Source: Bacillota bacterium
GTDB taxonomy: Bacteria > Bacillota > Clostridia > Peptostreptococcales > Anaerovoracaceae
Direction of reading: 5' to 3'
Assembly: GCA_017412505.1 (NCBI GenBank)
Contig: JAFPXN010000044.1
Location: 3,619 to 67,618 of the forward strand
DNA length: 64,000 bases
Shown: in pieces, positions 36,054 to 55,378 of the stretch
Layout of the letters: every line of letters begins with the position of its first letter
Numbering within the stretch: position 1 is the stretch's first letter
Notes under the pieces: generated by a model
Database searches by the model: none
Told to the model about the DNA's origin: nothing
The model's input: only the letters and a program-made list of their open reading frames with translations
Position numbers and translations under genes: made by a program

Positions 36054-37670
36054 ATGATCCACAGCATATTCAACGAAGTTTTGGGTCCCGTCACCACGGG
36101 GCCTTCCAGTTCCCATACGGCAGGCTGCGGCAGGATCGCTCTGACGGCCCGTTCTCTGTTCGGCCGCCCTGTGCGCAGGGCAGAGGTCGTCTACGAGATG
36201 AGAGGATCCTATCCCAGCACGCACGTCGGGCAGGGCTCGGATTACGCCTTCGCCGGCGGCCTGCTGGGCATTCCCATCGACGATCCCCGTTTTAAGGATG
36301 CGCTGCAGATCGCGAAGGAGCAGGGCGTGGAGATCTCTTTCCGGGAGGCGGATCTGGGTTACGAGCATCCGAACCAGGCCGAGATCCGGATCTACGCGGA
36401 CGAACCGCCCGCTCTGCCGGAAGGAAAGAAGGAAAAGCCCGAACTGCGCCTGATGACGTTCTCCACGGGCGGCGGCATGTTCGAGATCCGTTCTCTGGAC
36501 GGTTACGGCGTGCTGATCGACGGCAGCACGGAGCAGGTATTCATCCTGTGCGCGGAAGAGGTGGAAGACGCGGTGGAAGAAGTGATCCTGAAGAACCGCT
36601 TCTTCTACGACCGCATGGATCACAGGGGCGAACGCTTTTTCGACGTGGCGGTGGGCGCGGATCAGAGCCGGGCTCCGCTGGAAGCCCTGCGCGAATGGGA
36701 AGGCGTGCGATACGTGCGCGTCGCGCAGCCTGTGATGGCCGTACGGAAGAGAAGGATGCCGCAGATGCCTTTCACCAACGCGGAAGGCGCGCTTGCTTAT
36801 GCCGGGGAGCACAACCTGAACGCAGCGCAGCTCGCACTCTGTTACGAGAGCGCCTACGGCCACGTGGACGAAGCGCAGGCGATGCGGCTGGCAGCGCGGA
36901 TCGAGGAGGTCATGCGGGCGTCCTGCGTGCCGCCGGACCCGGAAAAGGTTCCGGTACACGGTTTTTTGCCGTATCAGGGCCGGAAGATGCGCGAAGAACT
37001 GGAAGCGCAGCGGAAGGCAGGGGGCGCTCCTATGGCCGGCGGAGAGGCTTTCTGCGAAGCGGTGCTGGCGGCGGTCGCGGTCGTGGAAAACAGCAACGCG
37101 CACAACGTCGTGGCGGCAGCGCCTACGGCAGGCGCCAGCGGCGTACTGCCCGGCGCGATCGTAACGGCAGGTACGAAAATGGGCTTTTCTTCGCAGCAGA
37201 TCTGCGAGGGTCTGCTGGCGGCGGGCCTGGTGGGCGCGTTCATCGCGAATCAGGCTACGTTCGGAGCGGAAGTGGCCGGATGCCAGGCGGAGAACGGCGC
37301 AGCCGGTGCAATGGCGGCAGCCGGCCTTGCCCACATGATGGGCTGCGGCGCCAGGCAGGTGTTCTGCGCCGCGTCGCTGGCGCTGCAGAACATGCTGGGA
37401 CTCGTGTGCGACCCGATCGCGGGCCTTACGGAAGTGCCCTGCATCTCGCGCAACGCGGCGGCGATGGCGGGTGCGATGGCCAGTGCGGACATGGCGCGGC
37501 TCGGTTTCGACAGCATGGTTCCTCTGGATGAGGCGATCGCCGCCATGAAAGACGTGGGCGGGCAGCTGCCCGCGGAATTGCGCTGCACCTGCAAAGGCGG
37601 CCTCTGCGCCACGAAGACAGGGCAGAAGCTGCAGACTTGGATGAATGGAATGAGCGCGGACAAAGTATGA
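36054..37670 (+). CDS. sdaA: Iron-sulfur-dependent L-serine dehydratase, single-chain (beta+alpha fused)
   Basis: N-terminal GPVTTGPSSSHTAG. Alpha-domain motifs APTAGASGVLPGA, AEVAGCQAENG and GLVCDPIAGLTEVPCISRNA. Confidence 0.75.
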   Translation: MIHSIFNEVLGPVTTGPSSSHTAGCGRIALTARSLFGRPVRRAEVVYEMRGSYPSTHVGQGSDYAFAGGLLGIPIDDPRFKDALQIAKEQGVEISFREADLGYEHPNQAEIRIYADEPPALPEGKKEKPELRLMTFSTGGGMFEIRSLDGYGVLIDGSTEQVFILCAEEVEDAVEEVILKNRFFYDRMDHRGERFFDVAVGADQSRAPLEALREWEGVRYVRVAQPVMAVRKRRMPQMPFTNAEGALAYAGEHNLNAAQLALCYESAYGHVDEAQAMRLAARIEEVMRASCVPPDPEKVPVHGFLPYQGRKMREELEAQRKAGGAPMAGGEAFCEAVLAAVAVVENSNAHNVVAAAPTAGASGVLPGAIVTAGTKMGFSSQQICEGLLAAGLVGAFIANQATFGAEVAGCQAENGAAGAMAAAGLAHMMGCGARQVFCAASLALQNMLGLVCDPIAGLTEVPCISRNAAAMAGAMASADMARLGFDSMVPLDEAIAAMKDVGGQLPAELRCTCKGGLCATKTGQKLQTWMNGMSADKV

Positions 37671-39001
37671 GTTGGATGACCTGGATAACCTGGTTCTTCT
37701 CGTCCCTGGGGATGTGGAAGATTCTGCAGAAATACGGAAAAGCCACCTGGCAGGCCTTTGTTCCCGGCTTGCGGTATTACCGTCTGGGACAGGCGTGCGG
37801 GCGCGATAAGGAAGGGCTTTACTGCCTCGTCTTCGAGGTGGTCTGCCGGCTGCTTGCGGCAGCGGCGAAACTCCTTCCTGAGGAAAGCAAGCCGACATTC
37901 TTCCTGAATGTGGTCGCCCTCGTCGGCGCGATCGTACTCGCCGTGTTCGAGATCCGCGTCATCGCGGGCCTCTGCCAGGCATTCGAGCTGAAAAAGCGCT
38001 GGATCGTATTTTGGGTACTCGCCGCCAGCGTCGCTTCCATGATCATCGGCTACTCCAAGCGGTTCCAGCCGGTACATGCCGCAGTGGCAGACGAAGAGAT
38101 CCTGGCTGGTACGCAGCCGGCGGAACTGAGCGCGCCGGTCGCGGAGAGCGAGAGCGGCGAAGGCCTTGCCATCCACGTGCGGGCAAGGACGGCCCGCGCC
38201 TTCGGCAAGACCCGCTATCTGCTGAAGGACGTTCACCTGACCATCCCCAACGGCTCGCTCGTCCTGCTGCTGGGCGGTTCCGGCGCGGGCAAGACCACGC
38301 TGGTGAACGCCATCACAGGCTACGAAAAGGCCGACGCGACCATACGCCTGAACGGCATCGACGTGTATCAGAACTACAACGAGATAAAGCATAAGATCGG
38401 CTTCGTTCCCCAGCAGGACCTGCTGCGCATGAACGATACCGTATCGAAGACGCTGGGCGACGCGGCTTTGATGCGCCTGCCCGTTACGGTCTCCGCGAAG
38501 GAACGCCAGGAAAAGATCGAAGCCGTCATGGACGTGCTGGGACTTTCCGGCAGGGCGGACGGCCTGGTCGCCAAGAAGTCCGGCGGACAGAAAAAGCGCA
38601 TCTCCATCGGTACAGAGCTGATCAGCGACCCGGAACTGTTCATCCTGGACGAACCGGATTCCGGGCTGGACGGCGTCATCGCGCGGGAACTGTTCGAGAA
38701 GCTGCGCAGCGTAGCGGACATGGGCAAAGTCGTGATCGCGATCACGCACACCCCGGACCGCGTCGCGGACCTGTTCGACAAGGTGATCGTGCTGGCGAGA
38801 GACTCCGGCAAGGTGGGACGGCTGGCGTTCTACGGGTCACCGGACGAGGCGCGGGAATTCTTCGGCAAATCCTCCATGGAGCAGGTCGTGCTCGCCATCA
38901 ACAGCGAATACGAGGGCGGCGAAGGCCGCGCAGACGAATTCATCGAGAAATACGCAAGACGGACCGCAGCGAAAGAGAAGGAGGTGACCGTCCATGAATG
39001 A
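37667..39001 (+). CDS. ABC transporter ATP-binding protein with an N-terminal membrane domain (DUF5684-like)
   Basis: ATG 37667 overlaps the sdaA stop. The N-terminus WFFSSLGMWKILQKYGKATWQAFVPGLRYY is followed by more TM segments. Then come Walker A GGSGAGKTT, the signature SGGQKKR and Walker B LFILDEPDSGLD. Confidence 0.8.
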   Translation: MSWMTWITWFFSSLGMWKILQKYGKATWQAFVPGLRYYRLGQACGRDKEGLYCLVFEVVCRLLAAAAKLLPEESKPTFFLNVVALVGAIVLAVFEIRVIAGLCQAFELKKRWIVFWVLAASVASMIIGYSKRFQPVHAAVADEEILAGTQPAELSAPVAESESGEGLAIHVRARTARAFGKTRYLLKDVHLTIPNGSLVLLLGGSGAGKTTLVNAITGYEKADATIRLNGIDVYQNYNEIKHKIGFVPQQDLLRMNDTVSKTLGDAALMRLPVTVSAKERQEKIEAVMDVLGLSGRADGLVAKKSGGQKKRISIGTELISDPELFILDEPDSGLDGVIARELFEKLRSVADMGKVVIAITHTPDRVADLFDKVIVLARDSGKVGRLAFYGSPDEAREFFGKSSMEQVVLAINSEYEGGEGRADEFIEKYARRTAAKEKEVTVHE

Positions 39002-39935
39002 AGCGCTGCGCTACCGGGGACGGGCTGCCCAGACCTGGATCTATCTGAAAAAACTGGCGCGCATGTTCGTATATCATAACGACTGGAAAATGCTTCCGAT
39101 GTCGGCTCTGATCGCGGGGCTGGTGACGTTTGCCGTGGGCGGAAGCCTGTTCCATACGCAGGAAGGCACGTTCAGCGGCTGCTTCGCGCTGGTCTGCGTC
39201 TGCATCTGGAACGGATTCTTCAATTCGATCCAGTCCGTCTGCCGCGAACGCCCCGTCATCAAGAGGGAACACCGCAGCGGACTGCACATCACGTCGTACA
39301 TCGCGGCGCACATGATCTACCAGATGGCCCTCTGCATTCTGGAAACGGTCATCCTGCTGTTCATCTGCAACATGGCGGGCATCGCGTTTCCGACGGAGGG
39401 CGTGATCACGCCGGTCTTCCTGGTGGATTACGGGATCTCTATGTTCCTGATCACCTACGCGGCTGACATGATGTCCCTGATGATCTCTTCGCTCGTCCGC
39501 AACACGACGACGGCGATGACGGTCATGCCGTTCATGCTGATCTTCCAGCTGATCTTCTCCGGCGGTTTCGTGAAGCTGGAAGGCTCTGCCGCGAATCTGA
39601 AGAGCATCACGGCGGCGAAGTGGGGGCTGCAGAATCTCTGCGCGCTCAGCGATTACAACAATCAGCCCATGGTGACCCTGTGGAACACGATCTGGAAATT
39701 CCGCTCCCTGGAGATCGGAGGACAGCAGCCGATCAAGATGATGACGGATTACATCGCGGAGAACAACATGCGCGATCAGATCCTGCTGGAATGCGGGAAG
39801 TACAACCTGAATCCGGATTACGTGAAGGAAGCGGGCAATATCCTGCACTGCTGGGGCATGCTGCTGGTGATCATCGTGGTCTTCGCGCTGCTTTCGGTCA
39901 TCTTGCTGGAGTTTATCGACAGGGATAAGCGGTAG
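38994..39935 (+). CDS. ABC-2 type transporter permease
   Basis: Overlaps the ATPase gene stop, has six hydrophobic segments, and has an ABC-2/ABCG-like layout. Confidence 0.75.
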   Translation: MNEALRYRGRAAQTWIYLKKLARMFVYHNDWKMLPMSALIAGLVTFAVGGSLFHTQEGTFSGCFALVCVCIWNGFFNSIQSVCRERPVIKREHRSGLHITSYIAAHMIYQMALCILETVILLFICNMAGIAFPTEGVITPVFLVDYGISMFLITYAADMMSLMISSLVRNTTTAMTVMPFMLIFQLIFSGGFVKLEGSAANLKSITAAKWGLQNLCALSDYNNQPMVTLWNTIWKFRSLEIGGQQPIKMMTDYIAENNMRDQILLECGKYNLNPDYVKEAGNILHCWGMLLVIIVVFALLSVILLEFIDRDKR

Positions 39936-43703: not shown

Positions 43704-44516
43704 ATGAAACTTACGATCCTCTCCGAAAACAATACGCATACCCGGGAGCCTTATCTGATGGGCGAACCCGGCTTTTCCTGCTACATCGAGTGCGGCGGCA
43801 AACGCATCCTGCTGGATACGGGCTATTACGGCGTCGCGGTGAAGAACGCGGAAACGCTGGGCATCGATCTGAACGGCCTGGACTATATCGCAATCTCCCA
43901 CGGCCATGACGACCACACGCACGGTCTGCTGCCGCTGCTGGAAGCAGGGATCGACGTCAGCCGGACAAAGCTCGTCGTCCACCCGAAGGCGCTGCTGCGC
44001 AAGGTCGTAGACGGTACGGAATCCGGTTTCCCCTGGCCCGGGGACGGGATCCGCAGCCGGTTCGACGTGCTGGAAGCGGCGCAGCCGTTGGAACTGGCGG
44101 AAAACCTGTGGTATCTGGGGCAGATCCCCCGGACGAACGATTTCGAGAATCAGACGCCCATCGGCTTCGTCGTGGACGAGGGAAGGGAAGAACCGGACTT
44201 CATCCTGGACGATACGGCGCTCGCCTACAGAACGGACGAAGGCGTCTTCATCATCACCGGCTGTTCGCACAGCGGGATCTGCAACATCTGCGAATACGCA
44301 AAGAAAGCGCTGGGCTACGATACGCTGCTCGGGGTCATCGGCGGATTCCATCTGCTGAAGCCCGGCCGCCAGCTCGAGGAGACCATACGCTATTTCGAAC
44401 GGGAAAAGCCCGCGAAGCTCTGCCCGTGCCACTGCATCTCCATGGGGTGCAAGTTCCGGATCGCGCAGGCGCTGCCCATCGAAGACGTGGCGGTCGGCTA
44501 CGAACTGGAGATCTGA
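43704..44516 (+). CDS. MBL-fold metallo-hydrolase
   Basis: LLDTGY..ISHGHDDHTHGL (HxHxDH motif) and CSHSG. Confidence 0.8.
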   Translation: MKLTILSENNTHTREPYLMGEPGFSCYIECGGKRILLDTGYYGVAVKNAETLGIDLNGLDYIAISHGHDDHTHGLLPLLEAGIDVSRTKLVVHPKALLRKVVDGTESGFPWPGDGIRSRFDVLEAAQPLELAENLWYLGQIPRTNDFENQTPIGFVVDEGREEPDFILDDTALAYRTDEGVFIITGCSHSGICNICEYAKKALGYDTLLGVIGGFHLLKPGRQLEETIRYFEREKPAKLCPCHCISMGCKFRIAQALPIEDVAVGYELEI

Positions 44517-44527
44517 AGGAGAGACCA

Positions 44528-45121
44528 TTGAACCTGAAAGAAACGAACGTGATCCTGGCATCCGGCTCGCCCCGCCGCATCGACATGCTGCGGGCGGACG
44601 GCATCGAGCCGCTGATCGTCAAACCGGACTGCGAAGAAAAGATCCATATCGCGCTCAGCCCTGCGCAGGAGGTGATGGCGCTGGCGCTGCGCAAGAATCT
44701 GCGCGCGGCGGAGATGCTGGCGGAGCAGGGCAAACTGCCTGCGGAGGGCGTCATCCTGTCCGCCGACACCATGGTCGTATTGGACGGCGTCCCCATCGGA
44801 AAGCCGGCGGATGAAGCGGACGCGTTCCGCATCCTCAGCAGCCTGAACGGGAAGAAACACACTGTCTGCAGCGGCGCCTGCCTCTGCGACCTGTCGACCG
44901 GCCGCAGACTGCTGTTTTCCGAGGCGACGGACGTGTATTTCATGGAATATACCGACGAAGAGATCCGCGCGTATATCGCGACGGGAGAACCCATGGACAA
45001 GGCGGGCGCTTATGCGATCCAGGGCGGATTCGCCCCTTACGTGACCCGTACGGAAGGCACGATGGACAACGTGATCGGCTTTCCCTACGAAACGATCCGG
45101 CGCATCGTTGCCCTGTGGTAA
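44528..45121 (+). CDS. maf: Maf-like nucleoside-triphosphate pyrophosphatase; inferred TTG start
   Basis: VILASGSPRRIDML.., SADTMVVLDG, KAGAYAIQG. TTG 44528 is preceded by AAGGAGAG. The ATG-less upstream part of ORF 44108 overlaps the MBL gene. Confidence 0.85.
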   Translation: MNLKETNVILASGSPRRIDMLRADGIEPLIVKPDCEEKIHIALSPAQEVMALALRKNLRAAEMLAEQGKLPAEGVILSADTMVVLDGVPIGKPADEADAFRILSSLNGKKHTVCSGACLCDLSTGRRLLFSEATDVYFMEYTDEEIRAYIATGEPMDKAGAYAIQGGFAPYVTRTEGTMDNVIGFPYETIRRIVALW

Positions 45122-46005: not shown

Positions 46006-46722
46006 ATGGGCATTACAGCACTGGTCACCTCCGGCAAGGGAGGCGCGGGAAAAACCACGATAACGGTCAATTTAGGAGCAACTCTGGCGCAGAAGGGCGC
46101 AAGAGTCGTTTTGGTTGACTTCAATATGGGCCTGCGCAACCTGGATATTTACCTGGGGATGGAGGACTGCAGCCTGTTCGACCTGGGAGACGTCCTGACC
46201 GGCGTCTGCAAGGTCGAGAAAGCCCTGGTGCACGACGAACGCTTCGGACGTCTGTACATGCTGCCCTGTCCGCAGTTCAAGGAGATCAACGGGATCACGG
46301 CGCAGCACGTGGCGGGTCTGTTCGGCGTGCTGAAGAACAAGTTCGATTACGTGCTGGTCGATATGCCTCTGGGCGTCGGCCAGATGATGGAGAACGCCGC
46401 GTCCGCGGCGGATCTGGGCATCGTCGTGGTCACGCCGGACTACGTATCCCTGCGCAACGCGGACACCGTGGACCGCAAACTGGACGTCTGCGGCCTGCAG
46501 AAGCGCTGCTTCATCATCAACCAGGTCGACCTGGAGATCCTGCGGAGCGGCAGCGTTCCGGGCATCGAACACATCGCCCGCAACATGAGCACGCCGCTGG
46601 CGGGCATCATCCCCTACGACGAGAACATCCACGCGGGCAACAACATGGGCAGCCCCGTCGTTCTGGCCGCCGATTCCTATATCGCAAAGAATTTCAGCAG
46701 CATCGCGCTGCGCGTTTTCTGA
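46006..46722 (+). CDS. MinD/ParA-family P-loop ATPase (MinD-like, 238 aa)
   Basis: The deviant Walker A TSGKGGAGKTT, and VLVDFNMGLRNLDIYLG and VLVDMPLG. Confidence 0.75.
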   Translation: MGITALVTSGKGGAGKTTITVNLGATLAQKGARVVLVDFNMGLRNLDIYLGMEDCSLFDLGDVLTGVCKVEKALVHDERFGRLYMLPCPQFKEINGITAQHVAGLFGVLKNKFDYVLVDMPLGVGQMMENAASAADLGIVVVTPDYVSLRNADTVDRKLDVCGLQKRCFIINQVDLEILRSGSVPGIEHIARNMSTPLAGIIPYDENIHAGNNMGSPVVLAADSYIAKNFSSIALRVF

Positions 46723-46732
46723 TCGAAAAGAC

Positions 46733-46767
46733 GAAGCCCTCCGGCAACGCAGCCGGAGGGCTTTTTT
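46733..46767. terminator. Bidirectional terminator between the minD-like gene (+) and selD (-)
   Basis: GAAGCCCUCCGGC-AACGCA-GCCGGAGGGCUUU flanked by an A-run and a T-run. Confidence 0.75.
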
Positions 46768-46778
46768 CATGCAGTTCG

Positions 46779-47819
46779 TTATTTCAGGAAAATGCGCTTT
46801 CCGCCCTGATAGGCGCGGACCGTTCCGATCCTCTGCGCGCTCAGCACCTGTCCCCGCAGCATGGCAAGGCATGATTCTGCGTCCTCGGGCGCCACGGCCG
46901 CCAGCAGGCCGCCGGACGTCTGTGGGTCGAACAGCGCGTCACAGACGGCTGTCTGTACGGTTCCCGCGTCCACCTGCGCTTCGCAGTGGTCGCGGTTGCG
47001 GTACATGCCTTCCGCCAGGATGCCCATGCGGGCGAATTCCAGGGCGGCGGGAAGGATCTCGACCGCCTGCGTATCCACGACGGCTTCGCAGTCCGTGCCG
47101 TCCACCATCTCGAACAGGTGACCCATCAGGCCGAACCCGGTCACGTCGGTGCAGGCGTGCATGGTGTGCCGTACGAAGACGTCGCGGGCCTTTTTGTTCA
47201 GCTCCGTCATGATGCGGATCATGGCTTTCTGATCGTCTTCCGACAGCAGACCGGCCTTGGCAGCCGTCGTCAGGATGCCGGTGCCCAGAGGCTTCGTGAG
47301 GATCAACACGTCGCCCGGCTTCGCGCCGCAGTTGCGGTAGAACCGGTCCGGATGGACGTAGCCGGTGACGGAAAGCCCGTATTTCGGCTCCTCGTCCAGG
47401 ATGGTATGGCCGCCCGCTACGACGGCGCCGGCCTCGTAGACTTTATCGTAGCCGCCGCGCAGGATTTCCCGGATGATCTCTTTGGAGAATCCGCGGGGCA
47501 CGCCCATGACGTTCAGGCAGGTCTTCGGTTCGCCGCCCATGGCGTAGACGTCGGAAAGGGCGTTGGCCGCGGCCACCTGGCCGAACGTGTAGGGGTCATC
47601 GACGACGGGAGGGAAGAAATCCACCGTCTGTACGAGCGCCAGTTCGTCGTTCACTTTGTAGACGCAGGCGTCGTCGCTCTTATCGAATCCGACGAGAAGG
47701 GCGGGATCGCTCTGCATGGAAATACCGTCTAACACTTCAGCAAGAACTCCTGCTCCCAGCTTCGCCCCTCATCCGGCGCAGCCTGCAAGGTCCGTCAGTC
47801 TGATATCCTTTGCAGTCAT
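46779..47819 (-). CDS. selD: Selenide, water dikinase (selenophosphate synthetase) with in-frame UGA = Sec at codon 17
   Basis: The ORF-track fragment 46779-47735 (…LLVGFDKSDDACVYKV…DFFPPVVDDPYTFGQVAAANALSDVYAMGG) lacks the N-terminus. The same frame continues upstream through TGA (47769-47771) to ATG 47819, which is preceded by GGAAAGGAGG. This gives MTAKDIRLTDLAGCAG-U-GAKLGAGVLAEVL, which aligns with E. coli IRLTQYSHGAGC(17)GCK(20). Confidence 0.85.
47739..47771 (-). other. UGA(Sec) codon plus SECIS-like hairpin
   Basis: On the minus strand: UGA GGGGCGAAGCUGGG then AGCAGG-AGUU-CUUGCU. This is a 6-bp stem with one G.U and a tetraloop, starting 14 nt after the UGA. Confidence 0.5.
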
Positions 47820-48062
47820 GAGCGGATCACCTCCTTTCCGTCGTATTTCTCAATGCTTTTCACAAAATAAGTATATATCGCACCCTTGATTTTGTGCAAG
47901 TCCAACTGTTTTTTGTAAAGAAATACACAACATTTGCTTTACAATTGACTGCATAAATTGTACAATATATTGGTATATTTTTTTGATTTTCTAACTGCGA
48001 AACGACAGTTTTTATCATACAGTCAGAAAATTAAACACTATTTAACGCAGAGGAGGCGCAGA

Positions 48063-49598
48063 ATGCTTGTCAAAGCACTGATTGCAATCGCCTTTCTCGC
48101 GATCGGAATACTTGTAGGTTACATCGTCCGCAAGAATACGGCAGAAAAGGTCATCGGCAGCGCCGAAACACAGGCCAAGAACCTGATTCTTGACGCGGAA
48201 AACCGCTCCGAAGCCATCCGCAAAGAGACGCTGGCAGACGCCAGAGCGGAGGCTCACTCCATAAAGCAAGATGCGGAAAGAGATATTCGCGAACGCAGAG
48301 AAGAGGTAAAGAAGACAGAGAGAAGACTGGTCCAGAAGGAAGAATCCTTAGACCGCAAGATCGAAAACATCGAACAGAAAGAAGAGAGCATCTCCAAAAA
48401 GCAGAGAGCCCTCGCTGAAAAAGAGAAGGAACTGGACGGCTTCATCGAACGCCAGGTCGCGGAACTGGAGCGCATCTCCGGCTGCACGGCGGAAGAGGCC
48501 AAGGCACAGCTCCTGGAAACGATCGAGAAGGACGTCCGCAGAGACGCTTCCATCATGATCAAGGACATCGAGTCCAAGGCGAAGGAAGAAGCGGACCGCA
48601 AGGCGAAAGAGATCATCACCGGCGCCATCCAGCGCTGCGCAGCGGATCACGTGGCGGAGACCACCGTTTCCGTCGTGCCCCTGCCCAACGATGAGATGAA
48701 GGGCCGCATCATCGGCCGCGAAGGCCGCAACATCCGTGCCATCGAGACCGCGACCGGCGTGGACCTCATCATCGACGATACGCCCGAGGCCGTCATCCTG
48801 TCCGGATTCGACCCCGTCAGAAGAGAAATCGCCAGAGTTGCTCTGGAGAAACTCATCGTCGACGGACGCATCCATCCGGCCCGCATCGAAGAAATGGTGG
48901 AAAAGGCTGAGAAGGAGGTCAACACGATCATCAAGGAAGAGGGCGAGGCTGCCACGTTCGAGATGGGCATCCACAACCTGCATCCCGAACTGGTCAAACT
49001 GCTGGGTAGACTGAAGTACCGCACCAGCTACGGCCAGAACGTGCTGAAGCACTCCCTGGAAGTCGCTCACCTGGCCGGCCTGATGGCAGGCGAACTGGGC
49101 ATGGACATCAAGCTGGCCCAGAGAGCGGGTCTGCTGCACGATATCGGCAAGGCGCTGGACCACGAGATCCAGGGCACCCACGTGGATATCGGCATCGACG
49201 TCTTAAGAAAGTATAAGGAATCCGAGGCGGTCATCGACGCGATGGCGGCTCACCACGGAGATTACGAACCCAAGAGCGCGGAGGCCGTTCTGGTCGCCGC
49301 CGCAGACGCGCTGTCCGCAGCCCGTCCCGGCGCTCGCCGCGAAACGCTCGACACCTACGTCAAGCGGCTGCAGAAGCTGGAAGAGATCGCGAACACGACG
49401 CCCGGCGTCGAAAAGTCCTTTGCGATCCAGGCCGGCCGCGAGATCCGCATCATCGCAAGACCGGACGAAGTATCCGACGACGCGATGGCGCTGCTGGCGA
49501 GAGAGATCTCCCAGAAGATCGAGAGCGAACTGGAATATCCGGGTCAGATCAAGGTGAACGTCATCCGGGAGACCAGAGCCATAGACTACGCAAAATAA
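48063..49598 (+). CDS. rny: Ribonuclease Y
   Basis: N-terminal TM anchor, a coiled-coil, a KH domain ([13 protein letters not shown]) and an HD domain ([18 protein letters not shown]). ATG 48063 follows GAGGAGG. Confidence 0.9.
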
Positions 49599-49610: not shown

Positions 49611-50768
49611 ATGTTTGTATATTTAGACAACAGCGCTACTACCCAGGTGCGGCCCGAGGTCGCGCAAATCATGGCAAAGACAATGACGGAGGATTTTGGA
49701 AATCCTTCGTCTTTGCATAGAATGGGTGTGAACGCGGAAAAGATCCTGAAGAAAGCCCGCGCCCAGGTAGCCGGCGCCCTGAACGCTTCGCCCGAGGAAG
49801 TGTTCTTCACGTCCTGCGGCACGGAAAGCGACGCCACGGTGCTGCGGGGCGTCTGGGAAAGCCGCAAAAAGCAGGGCAGACGCATCATTACGACGGCGGT
49901 GGAGCATCCGGCCATCCTGCGCAGCTGCGAAGCGCTCGCAAGAGAGGGTGCAGACGTAATTTATCTTCCGGTAAACCATGACTGCACGTTCGATATGGAT
50001 GCGTTGCGCGCCGCGCTGACCCCGGATACCATCCTCGTCTCCGTCATGCACGTGAACAACGAGGCCGGAAGCATCATGCCGCTGGCGGACATCCGCCGGG
50101 AGATCGATCAAGTGAACCGGGGCATCCTGTTCCACACGGACGCGGTCCAGTCCTTCGAGAAACTGGATACGGACGTCCATAAGCTGGGCGTGGACATGCT
50201 CAGCCTGTCGGGTCACAAGATCCACGCCTGCAAGGGCATCGGCGCGCTGTACGTAAAGAAAGGCCTGCACATCCAGCCCTTTATGCTGGGCGGAGGCCAG
50301 GAGAACGGGTTCCGTTCCGGTACGGAGAACCTGCCCGCCATCGCGGGCCTGGGCGAAGCCGTGCGGCTGGCGGAGGAAAACAAGCGGGACCGCGTCGCGC
50401 AGATCATGGACGTCAGAAACTACCTGAAGCAGCTGCTGGCGGACAATATCGAAGACGTCACGGTGAATTCGCCGGAAGACGGCGTGTGCTCCGTGCTGAA
50501 CGTCAGTTTCCTCGGCTGCCGCGGCGAAGTGCTGCTGCACACGCTGGAACAGGATGAGATCTATGTTTCCACGGGTTCCGCGTGCTCATCCCATAAGAAG
50601 GGAAGCCACGTGCTGACCGCCATGGGCCTGTCCCCGGAACAGATCGAAGGTGCGATCCGCTTCTCGTTCTGCGAGGATAATACGAGAGAACAGATGGATT
50701 ACGTCTGCGAAAAGCTGAAGGCGGCCGTCAGCAGCCAGAGACGGCTGAGAAAGGCGTTTAAGAAATAA
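49611..50768 (+). CDS. nifS: Cysteine desulfurase, NifS/IscS class
   Basis: YLDNSATT, SGHKIHACKGIGALY (PLP lysine) and STGSACSS (active-site Cys loop). Confidence 0.85.
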   Translation: MFVYLDNSATTQVRPEVAQIMAKTMTEDFGNPSSLHRMGVNAEKILKKARAQVAGALNASPEEVFFTSCGTESDATVLRGVWESRKKQGRRIITTAVEHPAILRSCEALAREGADVIYLPVNHDCTFDMDALRAALTPDTILVSVMHVNNEAGSIMPLADIRREIDQVNRGILFHTDAVQSFEKLDTDVHKLGVDMLSLSGHKIHACKGIGALYVKKGLHIQPFMLGGGQENGFRSGTENLPAIAGLGEAVRLAEENKRDRVAQIMDVRNYLKQLLADNIEDVTVNSPEDGVCSVLNVSFLGCRGEVLLHTLEQDEIYVSTGSACSSHKKGSHVLTAMGLSPEQIEGAIRFSFCEDNTREQMDYVCEKLKAAVSSQRRLRKAFKK

Positions 50769-51976
50769 TGGAAAACATCTATATCGTCCGCTGCGGCGAA
50801 AGCGCGCTGAAGGGCAAGAACAAACCTTATTTCGAGCGCATGCTCGTGCAGAGGATCAAAAAGAATCTGAAGGAATTCGACGGGACCGCCGTGGAAAGAG
50901 TCGACGGGCTCATCTTCGTGCGTACGCCGGAAACCGTGCCCGCGGACGGCGTGCTGAAGAAGGTCGGCCGTGTATTCGGCGTGGATTCCGTCAGCCCCGC
51001 CGTGGAAGTCTGCATCGAAGGCATGGACGCGGAGACCGCCCTGAACGCCATCGGCCAGGAAGCCGTCGCGTTCATGATGCGCCAGATCGAAGAGAAGGGC
51101 ATCCGGACGTTCAAGGTCGACGCGAAGCGCGCGGACAAGACGTTCGCCATCCAGTCTCCGGACATCGGTAAACGCATCGGCGCCCGCGTTCTGAAGGGCT
51201 GCAAGGTGCTGAAAGTGAACGTCCACGAGCCGGACTACCACCTGTATATCAACGTGCGCAGAAACCTCGCGTACCTTTACGATAAAAAGGTCTCCGGCTA
51301 CGGCGGCCTGCCGCTCGGCACGAACGGACGGGGCATGGTGCTGCTGTCCGGCGGCATCGATTCGCCGGTGGCAGCGTTTCTGATGGCGCACCGGGGCATG
51401 TACGTGGAAGCGGTGCATTTCCACTCCTATCCGTACACGTCGGAGCGCGCGTTCGAAAAAGTCAAAGATCTGGCGGGCATCCTGACGGATTACTGCGGAC
51501 GCATCCGCATGTTCTCCGTCAACCTGCTGCCCATCCAGGAACAGATCGTGCAGAATTGTCCCGAAGAGGAAACGACGATCCTGGTCCGCCGCTTCATGAT
51601 GCGCATCGCGGAAGCGATCGCAAAGAGAGAAGGGGACCTGATGCTCATCACCGGCGAGAGCCTGGGCCAGGTCGCCAGCCAGACGGCGGCTTCCCTCGTG
51701 GTCACCGACGCCTCCGTCAGCCTGCCCGTGATGCGGCCGCTCATCGCCATGGACAAGACGCAGATCATGGACATCGCACGCGATATCGGCACGTTCGAGA
51801 CGTCCATCCTGCCGTACGAGGACTGCTGCACCGTCTTTCTGCCCAAGCATCCCGTCACCCAGCCGAAACTGGAGCGGATCGAGCAGTCGGAATCGCGCCT
51901 CGAAGTGGAAAAATTAGTGCAGGCAGCGGTAGATTCCGCAGAATTGACAATTATTTCGCAAAGGGACGGGATTTAA
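50768..51976 (+). CDS. thiI: tRNA 4-thiouridine(8) synthase ThiI
   Basis: A THUMP region followed by the PP-loop LLSGGIDSPVAA. The start overlaps the nifS stop (TAATG). Confidence 0.85.
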   Translation: MENIYIVRCGESALKGKNKPYFERMLVQRIKKNLKEFDGTAVERVDGLIFVRTPETVPADGVLKKVGRVFGVDSVSPAVEVCIEGMDAETALNAIGQEAVAFMMRQIEEKGIRTFKVDAKRADKTFAIQSPDIGKRIGARVLKGCKVLKVNVHEPDYHLYINVRRNLAYLYDKKVSGYGGLPLGTNGRGMVLLSGGIDSPVAAFLMAHRGMYVEAVHFHSYPYTSERAFEKVKDLAGILTDYCGRIRMFSVNLLPIQEQIVQNCPEEETTILVRRFMMRIAEAIAKREGDLMLITGESLGQVASQTAASLVVTDASVSLPVMRPLIAMDKTQIMDIARDIGTFETSILPYEDCCTVFLPKHPVTQPKLERIEQSESRLEVEKLVQAAVDSAELTIISQRDGI

Positions 51977-52124: not shown

Positions 52125-53264
52125 ATGAACTTTCAATTATCGAAAGAGCAAGAGAAAGTAAGAGAACTGGTAAGGAAGTTTGCCCTTGCCGAAGTCGAAC
52201 CCATCGCTGCTGACATCGATAAGGAACACAGATTCCCCAAGGAAAATGTCGAAAAGATGGCTAAGCTCGGTATGATGGGCATTCCGTTCCCCGCTGAATA
52301 CGGCGGCGCCGGCTCCGACCATATCTCTTATGCGATCACTGTGGAAGAACTCGCCAGAGTCTGCGCATCCACTGCTGTTATCGTCTCTGCTCACACTTCC
52401 CTGTGCTGCTGGCCGATCTTCAACTACGGCACTGACGAGCAGAAGGCAAAGTACCTGCCCGACCTGCTCTCCGGCAAGAAGCTCGGCGCTTTCGGTCTGA
52501 CCGAACCCAACGCGGGTACCGACGCATCCGGACAGCAGACCAAGGCTGTCGACATGGGCGACCACTGGCTCCTGAACGGCGCTAAGGTCTTCATCACCAA
52601 CGGCGGCTATGCAGACACGTTCGTCGTCTTCGCGATGACCGACAAGAGCAAGGGCAACCACGGTATTACCGCTTTCATCGTCGAGAAGGGCTTCCCCGGA
52701 TTCTCCATCGGCAAGACCGAGGATAAGCTGGGCATCCACGCTTCTTCCACCACCGAACTTATCTTCGAAGACTGCATCGTTCCCAAGGAAAACCTGCTGG
52801 GCGAAGTCGGTCAGGGCTTCAAGATCGCCATGTCCACGCTGGACGGCGGCCGTATCGGTATCGCTTCCCAGGCTCTGGGTATCGCGCAGGGCGCTCTGGA
52901 CGTCACCGTCGACTACATGAAGTCCAGAAAGCAGTTCGGCAAGTCCCTGAACAAGTTCCAGGCTCTGGCTTTCGAAGTTGCTGAAATGAAGACCCGCATC
53001 GAAGCTGCTAGACTCCTCGTCTACAGCGCAGCCTTCAAGAAGGACCAGCATATGCCGTACTCCGTAGACGCTGCGATGGCTAAGTACTATGCCGCTGAGA
53101 CCGCTATGTACGTCACCACCAAGGCAGTCCAGCTCCACGGCGGTTATGGTTACACCACCGATTACCCCGTAGAGCGCATGATGAGAGACGCAAAGATCAC
53201 GGAGATCTACGAAGGAACCACCGAAGTTCAGAAGATGGTCATCTCCGGCGCTGTGTTCAAGTAG
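52125..53264 (+). CDS. bcd: Acyl-CoA dehydrogenase, butyryl-CoA dehydrogenase-like
   Basis: GAFGLTEPNAGTDA, QLHGGYGYTTDYPVERMMRDAKITEIYEGTTEVQ, with etfB-etfA immediately downstream. Confidence 0.8.
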   Translation: MNFQLSKEQEKVRELVRKFALAEVEPIAADIDKEHRFPKENVEKMAKLGMMGIPFPAEYGGAGSDHISYAITVEELARVCASTAVIVSAHTSLCCWPIFNYGTDEQKAKYLPDLLSGKKLGAFGLTEPNAGTDASGQQTKAVDMGDHWLLNGAKVFITNGGYADTFVVFAMTDKSKGNHGITAFIVEKGFPGFSIGKTEDKLGIHASSTTELIFEDCIVPKENLLGEVGQGFKIAMSTLDGGRIGIASQALGIAQGALDVTVDYMKSRKQFGKSLNKFQALAFEVAEMKTRIEAARLLVYSAAFKKDQHMPYSVDAAMAKYYAAETAMYVTTKAVQLHGGYGYTTDYPVERMMRDAKITEIYEGTTEVQKMVISGAVFK

Positions 53265-53284
53265 GCTAAAGGAGGAAAAGAACT

Positions 53285-54085
53285 ATGAGAATTATCGTTT
53301 GCGCAAAGCAAGTACCCGATACCAGCGAAGTTAAGATCGACCCGAAGACCAACCGTATCATCCGTGACGGCGTGCCCAGCATTCTGAACCCGGACGATGC
53401 CAACGCTCTCGAAGAAGCTCTGCTGCTGAAGGATAAGGATCCCAACGTCACCGTTACGGTCGTTTCCATGGGACCGCCCCAGGCAAAGGACATGCTGATC
53501 GAATGCCTCGCAATGGGCGCAGATGAATGCTATCTGCTGTCCGACAGAGCCGTAGGCGGCTCCGACACATGGGCAACCTCCAACGCCATCACCGCGCTCA
53601 TCGAAAAGATCGGTCCCTTCGACATGATCTTCGCAGGCAGACAGGCCATCGACGGCGACACCGCCCAGGTCGGTCCGCAGATCGCGGAAAAGATGCACCT
53701 GCCCCAGGTCACTTACGTTCAGAAGTTCGAGATCTCCGAAGACTATAAGAAGGTCACCGTTCAGAGACAGCTCGAAGACGGCTATGAGATCATCGAAGTC
53801 GCCACTCCCTGCATGCTCACCTGCATCAAGGAACTGAACAACCCTAGATACATGACCGTCAGCGGCATCGTCAAGGCCTGCAAGCCCGACGCTCCCATCT
53901 ATGTGAAGAGCGCCAAGGATGTCGAGTGCGACCTCTCCAAGGTAGGCCTCGAGGCTTCCCCGACCGTCGTATTCCGTTCCTTCACGCCGGCTCCCAAGGC
54001 TCCCGGCCAGATCATCAAGGGCGAGGACGAGCGCGAGCTCTCCAAGAACCTGCTGGCTAAGCTGAAGGAAAAGCACGCGATCTGA
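53285..54085 (+). CDS. etfB: Electron transfer flavoprotein beta subunit
   Basis: MRIIVCAKQVPDTSEVKIDPKTN..., VSMGPPQA and FAGRQAIDGDTAQVGPQIAE. Confidence 0.9.
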   Translation: MRIIVCAKQVPDTSEVKIDPKTNRIIRDGVPSILNPDDANALEEALLLKDKDPNVTVTVVSMGPPQAKDMLIECLAMGADECYLLSDRAVGGSDTWATSNAITALIEKIGPFDMIFAGRQAIDGDTAQVGPQIAEKMHLPQVTYVQKFEISEDYKKVTVQRQLEDGYEIIEVATPCMLTCIKELNNPRYMTVSGIVKACKPDAPIYVKSAKDVECDLSKVGLEASPTVVFRSFTPAPKAPGQIIKGEDERELSKNLLAKLKEKHAI

Positions 54086-54106
54086 TGGTAGAAGGAGGAT
54101 ACTAAA

Positions 54107-55378
54107 ATGGCAGTAGTAATTAATCAAGAATTATGCAAAGGTTGCAAGATCTGCGTCAAGAACTGCCCGTTCCAGGCGATCGACTTCGACGAGACCACCA
54201 GAAAAGCGACCATTAACGAGAAGTGCACGGCTTGCTCCGTCTGCATTTCCAAGTGCCCGTTCAAGGCAATCTCCAAGGACGAGAGCGACGAAGTCGATCT
54301 GTCCGCTTATAAGCATATCTGGGTCTTTGCCGAACAGAGAGACGGCGAACTCATGGGCGTAGCGAAGGAACTGATCGCCTGCGGCCGCAGACTTTCCAGA
54401 GACATCTCCCCCGAGACCAAGTGCTATGCGCTGCTCGTCGGCAACAACCTGGGAGCGCTCGGACAGGAAGCGATCGAATGGGGCGCTGACGGCTCCATCC
54501 TCATCGAACATCCGCTGCTTGAACACTTCAACACCGACGGTTACACCAAGGTCATCTGCGACGCGATCCAGGAAATGAAGCCCGAGATCATCCTCTACGG
54601 CGCAACCCACATCGGCCGCGACCTGGCTCCCCGTGTAGCCGGCAGATCCAACGTCGGTCTGACCGCAGACTGCACCGGTCTGGAAGTCGACCTCGAGAAG
54701 TACAAGGCATACTGCGCAAAGGAAACCACGCTCGACCTGTCCACGCTGGAAGGCGAGGACCCGAACGACAAGTGCATCAAGCAGACCCGTCCGGCATTCG
54801 GCGGCAACCTGATGGCCACCATCGTTTCCAAGAAGACCAGACCGCAGATGTCCACCGTACGTCCCGGCGTTATGTCCAAGCAGGAAAGAGTTCCCGGCGC
54901 TCAGGGCGAGATCATCAAGGTCACCCCGAAGCTCGAAGAGAGCGACATCCGCACCAAGATCATCAAGATCGTCAAGGAAGCCAAGGAAATGGTCTCCCTG
55001 ACCGACGCCAAGATCATCTGCTCCGGCGGTCGTGGTCTGGGCGGTCCGGAAGGATTCAAGCTCATCGAAGAATTCGCGAACAAGGTCGGCGGCGTTGTCG
55101 GTTCTTCCCGTGCCTGCGTTGACGCTGGCTGGATCGGCCACGAACACCAGGTCGGTCAGACCGGTACCACCGTCAAGCCCGACATCTACTTCGCATGCGG
55201 CATCTCCGGCGCTATCCAGCACCAGGCGGGCATGAAGAACTCCAAGCTGATCGTTGCGATCAACAAGGATCCGGATGCTCCGATCTTCGGCATTGCTGAC
55301 TACGGTATCGTCGGCGACCTGTATAAGGTCATCCCCATGATCATCGAAGAATGGGACAACTTCTCCACAGCTCTGTAA
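54107..55378 (+). CDS. etfA: Electron transfer flavoprotein alpha subunit with an N-terminal 2x[4Fe-4S] ferredoxin domain
   Basis: [12 protein letters not shown] and [12 protein letters not shown] within residues 1-65. A canonical EtfA follows ([28 protein letters not shown]). Confidence 0.9.

Follow-up and report, generated by a model that had tools for sequence, protein, structure and literature searches.

A selD gene with an in-frame UGA at codon 17 that very probably encodes a selenocysteine-containing selenophosphate synthetase in a Bacillota bacterium

The window, i.e. the whole stretch of 64,000 nucleotides analysed here, almost certainly harbours a functional selD gene of the selenocysteine (Sec) type at positions 46779..47819 of the reverse strand, encoding a selenophosphate synthetase (selenide, water dikinase) that itself contains Sec. 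A preliminary description of the same DNA had proposed that this selD is a selenoprotein gene, and the proposal is borne out by matches to protein families and structures, by the conservation of the UGA codon, by the Sec machinery of the genome and by its other selenoprotein genes. The gene comprises 346 codons and a TAA stop codon (46781-46779). Its ATG start codon (47819-47817) lies in the same frame as the open reading frame predicted with translation table 11, provided that TGA is read as U. Translated in this way the gene yields 346 residues beginning with MTAKDIRLTDLAGCAG-U-GAKLGAGVLAEVL... (over a longer stretch, MTAKDIRLTDLAGCAG-U-GAKLGAGVLAEVLDG...) and contains a single TGA at codon 17 (47769..47771, reverse strand), which is aligned with Cys17 of the Escherichia coli SelD and presumably read as Sec.

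The read-through product was assigned to SelD by two equivalog profiles, TIGR00476 (404.6 bits, cut-off 125) and NF002098 (347.1 bits, cut-off 299). According to a phmmer search against the PDB its residues 2-341 match residues 2-341 of the E. coli SelD structure 3u0o (E=1.7e-70), and end-to-end alignments were also obtained with the Aquifex SelD structures 2yye and 2zod. The two-domain PurM-like architecture (PF00586, AIRS; PF02769, AIRS_C) is recorded for the called product. The N-terminus aligns with 3u0o without gaps, placing U17 on Cys17 and K20 on Lys20, and thus comprises the glycine-rich loop, which in E. coli SelD is established to be required for catalysis. The alignment agrees with the earlier placement of the UGA at the Cys17 position, three residues ahead of the conserved lysine. 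The restoration of the SelD N-terminus from an upstream ATG with a strong ribosome-binding site, also put forward earlier, holds likewise: ATG 47819 is preceded by the Shine-Dalgarno region GAAAGGAGGTGATC (47825..47838, reverse strand, direct reading), a nearly complete complement of the 3' end of the 16S rRNA and hence a very strong ribosome-binding site. Within this region AAGGAGGTG is kept in all orthologues of the genus in the DNA alignment.

The list of open reading frames obtained with table 11 contains only a truncated version of the gene (46779..47735, reverse strand; 318 amino acids) that begins with a GTG at codon 29 (47733..47735), the start used by ORF finders. A second false start, the ATG at codon 35 (47715-47717), matches a product of 312 amino acids. 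The preliminary description had expected automated annotation to call the gene truncated, and indeed the public protein cluster for this SelD consists of 312- and 318-residue members only, one of them from NCBI. If these calls were correct, the UGA would terminate a leader peptide of 16 residues and the truncated SelD would be made from GTG 47735 or ATG 47717. Besides the choice of these starts by gene callers, a weak GGAG located 11 nt ahead of the GTG might be taken in favour of such an arrangement. However, this GGAG belongs to the conserved hairpin described below, the strong Shine-Dalgarno sequence precedes ATG 47819 instead, and the GTG is not conserved, the codon being ATC or ATA in G004, G002 and G007. 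Taking furthermore into account that the truncated protein would be devoid of the glycine-rich loop with Sec/Cys17 and Lys20, which is kept in all 107 homologues compared, it seems very unlikely that the truncated SelD is the actual product.

The earlier prediction of a full Sec-decoding system elsewhere in the genome proved correct. The genes selA (36160-37500; 574 bits), selC encoding tRNA-Sec (37568-37664; anticodon TCA; 69 bits with RF01852 against a cut-off of 47) and selB (37725-39605; 363 bits against a cut-off of 242) were all detected above their cut-offs and are located next to each other on contig C63 (36160-39605). The preliminary description had also suggested searching for further genes interrupted by UGA, and a grdA and two grdB-type genes were identified. 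One grdB (...LTST-U-GTCTRCG...) is located downstream of selB and grdA (...ECFV-U-TAAG...) belongs to the same C63 cluster, each of them with an in-frame TGA. A second gene of the grdB type with an in-frame TGA and the motif LTST-U-GTCTRCG was found on another contig (C126:16263-17600; L051); its product may represent the B subunit of a reductase of the sarcosine/betaine type. No FdhA was detected above the cut-off in the genome; FdhA was rejected as a further selenoprotein, the only matches being sub-threshold molybdopterin enzymes whose genes lack an in-frame stop codon. The use of selenium in selenouridine was rejected as well, as no selU/ybbB was found in the genome.

The region C63:36160-44740 (L001, L003, L011, L049, L050) of the genome (G000) thus contains selA, tRNA-Sec and selB followed directly by the glycine reductase cluster, in which an ORF resembling thioredoxin reductase comes right after grdB. 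On C63 the genes for Sec decoding are physically linked to their main clients, while selD stands alone on another contig.

Based on these features we infer the following course of events. Translation of selD would start at ATG 47819, and the mRNA hairpin located 14-29 nt past the UGA would recruit SelB carrying Sec-tRNA(Sec) to codon 17. Selenocysteine would then be built into the N-terminal glycine-rich loop where the E. coli SelD has its catalytic Cys17, whereupon translation would run on to the TAA at 46781-46779. The product, as a putatively active SelD enzyme, would supply selenophosphate to SelA, and the selenophosphate would presumably serve Sec synthesis for at least GrdA, the two GrdB-type proteins and SelD itself. 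An autocatalytic dependence of selenophosphate synthesis on selenium, as had been pointed out for this gene before, is a familiar feature of Sec-type SelD/SPS2.

If thiophosphate takes the place of selenophosphate, cysteine can be inserted at Sec codons via the Sec machinery. The UGA of selD might accordingly be read as Cys via Cys-tRNA(Sec) at low selenium, as Trp or Gly through near-cognate decoding or reassignment, or as a mixture of these with Sec. Insertion of Cys would also ease the bootstrap problem of a SelD that depends on Sec for its own synthesis. Yet tRNA-Sec is the only UGA-reading tRNA found, and all homologues compared have either Cys or Sec in the respective column. Moreover, TGA is a normal and frequent stop codon, terminating 347 of the 1242 long frames in the genome; therefore the genetic code is standard and a reassignment of TGA was rejected. 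A residue other than Sec appears hardly probable at codon 17.

The conservation of the codon was assessed in 41 related genomes, in which 27 selD orthologues were found. Exactly one TGA is present in 25 of them, in all 25 cases in the same alignment column, and the orthologues with TGA extend down to 45% identity; the remaining two, from G008 (same genus) and G031, have TGC in this column. All 80 further homologues from outside the genus have Cys at the Sec position. The TGA is also present in each of the ten independent ENA metagenome contigs that were fetched (10/10), which originate from different samples and vary at neighbouring polymorphic bases, and at least 24 public contigs encode the truncated SelD product in identical form. 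The 16 codons ahead of the UGA evolve as coding sequence under purifying selection, as eight of the ten differences that separate the window from G002 (65% identity) fall on third positions. Given the TGA in all ten contigs, a sequencing error at 47769-47771, named beforehand as a possible refutation, is excluded, and so is a private mutation. The assumption of an assembly or sequencing error or of a recent inactivating mutation, which would render selD a pseudogene or a gene truly encoding Cys at codon 17, can invoke the stop that a plain table-11 reading meets at this very TGA, the fragmented assembly (164 contigs, 92% complete) and the Cys-type SelD in the same genus (G008), but it retains next to no probability, as it is refuted in practice by the conservation of the TGA in orthologues and independent metagenome contigs and is further opposed by the selection on the upstream codons and by the full Sec machinery of the genome.

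The presumed SECIS element of the gene is the hairpin AGCAGG-AGUU-CUUGCU (47739..47754, reverse strand), which begins 14 nt after the UGA. It consists of a stem of 6 bp formed by AGCAGG (47754-47749) and CUUGCU (47744-47739) and of the loop AGUU (47748-47745), which begins 20 nt after the UGA and contains GU. Criteria of the bSECISearch type ask for a stem-loop just 3' of the UGA with an apical loop about 16-37 nt away and a G (GU) in the loop; they are in agreement with the spacing and the loop of the selD hairpin. Hairpins of comparable geometry (GUUGC-GGC/GGU-GCAAC) follow the UGA of the grdB genes in the same genome at a distance of 13 nt.

The position given for this hairpin in the preliminary description was exact, and its pairing is preserved throughout the eight Sec-type genes of the genus, in which all pair cells are standard (48/48, 100%) compared to 25-62% in slid registers. 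The hairpin of G003 and G006 shows a compensatory double change from A-U to G-C, the covariation within the genus amounting to one evolutionary event only. The codons involved (GGA GCA GGA GTT CTT GCT) are identical across lineages that have a wobble identity of 0.42-0.46 elsewhere in the gene, and all six of them end with A or T (0/6 GC3) in a gene with a GC3 of 0.81 (P about 4.5e-5). In the Cys-type gene of G008 the same peptide is encoded by GGC GCC GGA GTG CTG GCA, five of the six wobble sites being changed. The genus thereby offers a natural control for the constraint that a SECIS element imposes on synonymous sites, in which Sec-type genes with a frozen hairpin of rare codons stand against a Cys-type gene with the same peptide and drifted codons.

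The selD of G008 (L027) keeps the peptide GAKLGAGVLAEVL, and the changed codons at the site of the former SECIS are GC-ending for the most part. It retains a 5-bp hairpin (GCCGG-AGUG-CUGGC) which resembles a "fossil SECIS" and which is also what the preferred codons for A-G-V-L-A yield unaided.

The folding energy of the window hairpin is ordinary compared to dinucleotide shuffles (z = +0.47). Of the synonymous-codon shuffles drawn from the codon usage of selD itself, 99% are more stable than the natural segment of 48 nt behind the UGA (z = +2.05). Encoded by common GC-ending codons, the peptide A-G-V-L-A can itself give rise to a similar hairpin, as it does in the Cys-type relatives. Since a synonymous version rich in GC would form a stronger fold, the case for the hairpin is an evolutionary one; a role as SECIS element is suggested by conservation and covariation rather than by stability. 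What appears to be selected at 47739-47768 (reverse strand) is a particular hairpin of moderate strength whose flanks stay open, and not the greatest possible stability. Across the order, the region after the UGA in Sec-type genes (n=25) exceeds synonymous shuffles in stability (mean z = -1.24; 36% at p<0.05), while the corresponding region in Cys-type genes (n=82) shows a mean z of -0.20 with 2% at p<0.05. In AT-rich relatives from the same order the hairpin is located 3-4 nt nearer to the UGA, has another sequence and clearly surpasses synonymous shuffles in stability. The attempt to describe all 25 Sec-type genes by a single column-wise structure was dropped, as the register of the hairpin differs between families. 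Searches against Rfam, covering the whole window at gathering thresholds and positions 47600-47900 at E<=10, revealed two chance hits and no relevant family, a result that is uninformative for bacterial SECIS elements.

The nearest SelD proteins outside the genus were 80 matches with 53-69% identity, all of the Cys type (TGC/TGT) and labelled mostly as Oscillospiraceae, Clostridiales or Christensenellales. In the maximum likelihood tree the genus (eight Sec-type genes and one Cys-type gene) and the Cys genes together make up a strongly supported clade, in which the genus has an unresolved basal position, and the Sec-type genes from elsewhere in the same family and order fall outside this clade. 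The simplest reading is that Sec was ancestral and has been retained, having been replaced by Cys once on the way to the large Cys clade and once more in G008. Sec-to-Cys is also the commonly reported direction (PMC1794560). Alternatively, the Sec form of the genus could derive from a conversion of Cys to Sec inside the all-Cys SelD clade with the motif CAG-C-GAKVGAGVLA, which we regard as improbable. The SECIS element would then have been carved from the hairpin that A-G-V-L-A encodes in any case, through the fixation of rare codons ending with A or U. A position of the genus nested in the Cys clade, which would suggest such a conversion, was unsupported: a tree in which 77 Cys genes were forced into one clade as sister to the genus had an even better likelihood (p-AU 0.87). 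If true, the conversion would be the second documented event of this kind in SelD after that in the Pasteurellales (PMC4561486).

Near-identical Cys-type SelD of the Oscillospiraceae type were observed on contigs (L068, L076, L120, L129, L132, L133) from MAGs that carry the labels Collinsella, Bacteroidaceae, Synergistaceae, Succinivibrio and Atopobium, which reflects either binning contamination or recent transfers. L132 and L133 (Atopobium) form a separate long branch.

The Sec-type SelD is already known, and the arrangement found here does not depart from the published picture. No bacterial selenoproteins are more widespread than SelD and FdhA, and Sec-type SelD has been listed for Haemophilus influenzae, Clostridioides difficile, Clostridium perfringens and Moorella thermoacetica (PMC1794560). 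Sec is encoded by 19% of the prokaryotic SelD genes in a survey, "always in the same position", and the SECIS within the ORF of such genes has been described as well (PMC4561486). The SelD of the window shares with bacterial Sec-type SelD the assignment to TIGR00476, the single Sec at the same position, the SECIS located within the coding sequence immediately behind the UGA and the co-occurrence with selA/selB/selC and GrdA/GrdB in an amino-acid fermenter resembling Clostridia. There is no difference of kind, the hairpin AGCAGG-AGUU-CUUGCU being specific to the genus. The genome furthermore conforms to the rule by which bacteria that decode Sec and lack FdhA possess a Sec-type SelD (PMC1794560), as it encodes a Sec-type SelD and no FdhA was found above the cut-off.

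The E. coli SelD (3u0o) is collinear over residues 2-341, with the catalytic loop and Lys20 aligned, but it has Cys17 (TGC) and no SECIS where the protein of the window has Sec17. The Cys-type SelD of Oscillospiraceae and Christensenellales are the closest by sequence outside the genus and share the motif KLTKLAxCAG-C-GAKVGAGVLA. In contrast to the gene described here, they have TGC or TGT at the respective codon in 80 of 80 cases, and the region after this codon is no more structured than in synonymous shuffles.

The importance of the finding is limited to annotation and conceptually it is nothing new. The gene should be listed as a full-length selD with selenocysteine at codon 17 and neither as a truncated protein of 312 or 318 amino acids nor as a pseudogene. 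The organism appears to be a selenocysteine user in which glycine reductase and the supply of selenophosphate itself would depend on selenium.

Upstream of selD a consensus scan identified the promoter-like site TGCACA-17-TATACT (47870..47898, reverse strand), of which the block GATATATAC is kept among the orthologues of the genus in the DNA alignment; it may act as the selD promoter. An intrinsic terminator with a stem of 12 bp followed by a T-rich tail is located past the TAA (46734..46763, reverse strand). Due to the promoter-like site upstream and the terminator downstream selD looks monocistronic. The gene encoding RNase Y (47958-49598) is transcribed divergently from selD, and that of a MinD-like ATPase (46006-46722) is convergent with it.

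The preliminary description had furthermore considered that a nifS-type desulfurase encoded in the vicinity could double as a selenocysteine lyase, which is not supported by our analysis. The NifS-like gene (49611-50768, forward strand) reached 95.6 bits with the SclA selenocysteine lyase model NF040779, for which the cut-off is 525. Its best match was the NifS/IscS-type cysteine desulfurase model TIGR03402 (424.9 bits, under the cut-off of 530.75), and no specific desulfurase equivalog was matched above its curated cut-off. The gene overlaps by one base with the start of thiI (50768-51976, forward strand), which follows immediately, and desulfurase and ThiI form the classic pair for the synthesis of 4-thiouridine in tRNA. 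Because thiI directly follows and the SclA score is below the cut-off, the context points to sulfur supply for tRNA 4-thiouridine or Fe-S. A dedicated Sec lyase was rejected on account of the family score and the partnership with thiI, and a moonlighting role of the NifS-like protein in selenium delivery is conceivable, though nothing points to it.

Further downstream (52125-55378, forward strand) an acyl-CoA dehydrogenase, EtfB and a probable EtfA are encoded in this order; the dehydrogenase has its best match in the acryloyl-CoA reductase AcrC, at a score below the cut-off. Modules of butyryl- or acryloyl-CoA dehydrogenase and Etf are typical of fermenters of amino acids or lactate. On the other side of selD the longest ORF of the Maf gene (44108-45121, forward strand) encodes 337 amino acids, compared to 190-197 amino acids in public gene calls for Maf. 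The N-terminal extension of about 140 codons shows no match to any family and is an artefact of ORF finding in GC-rich DNA.
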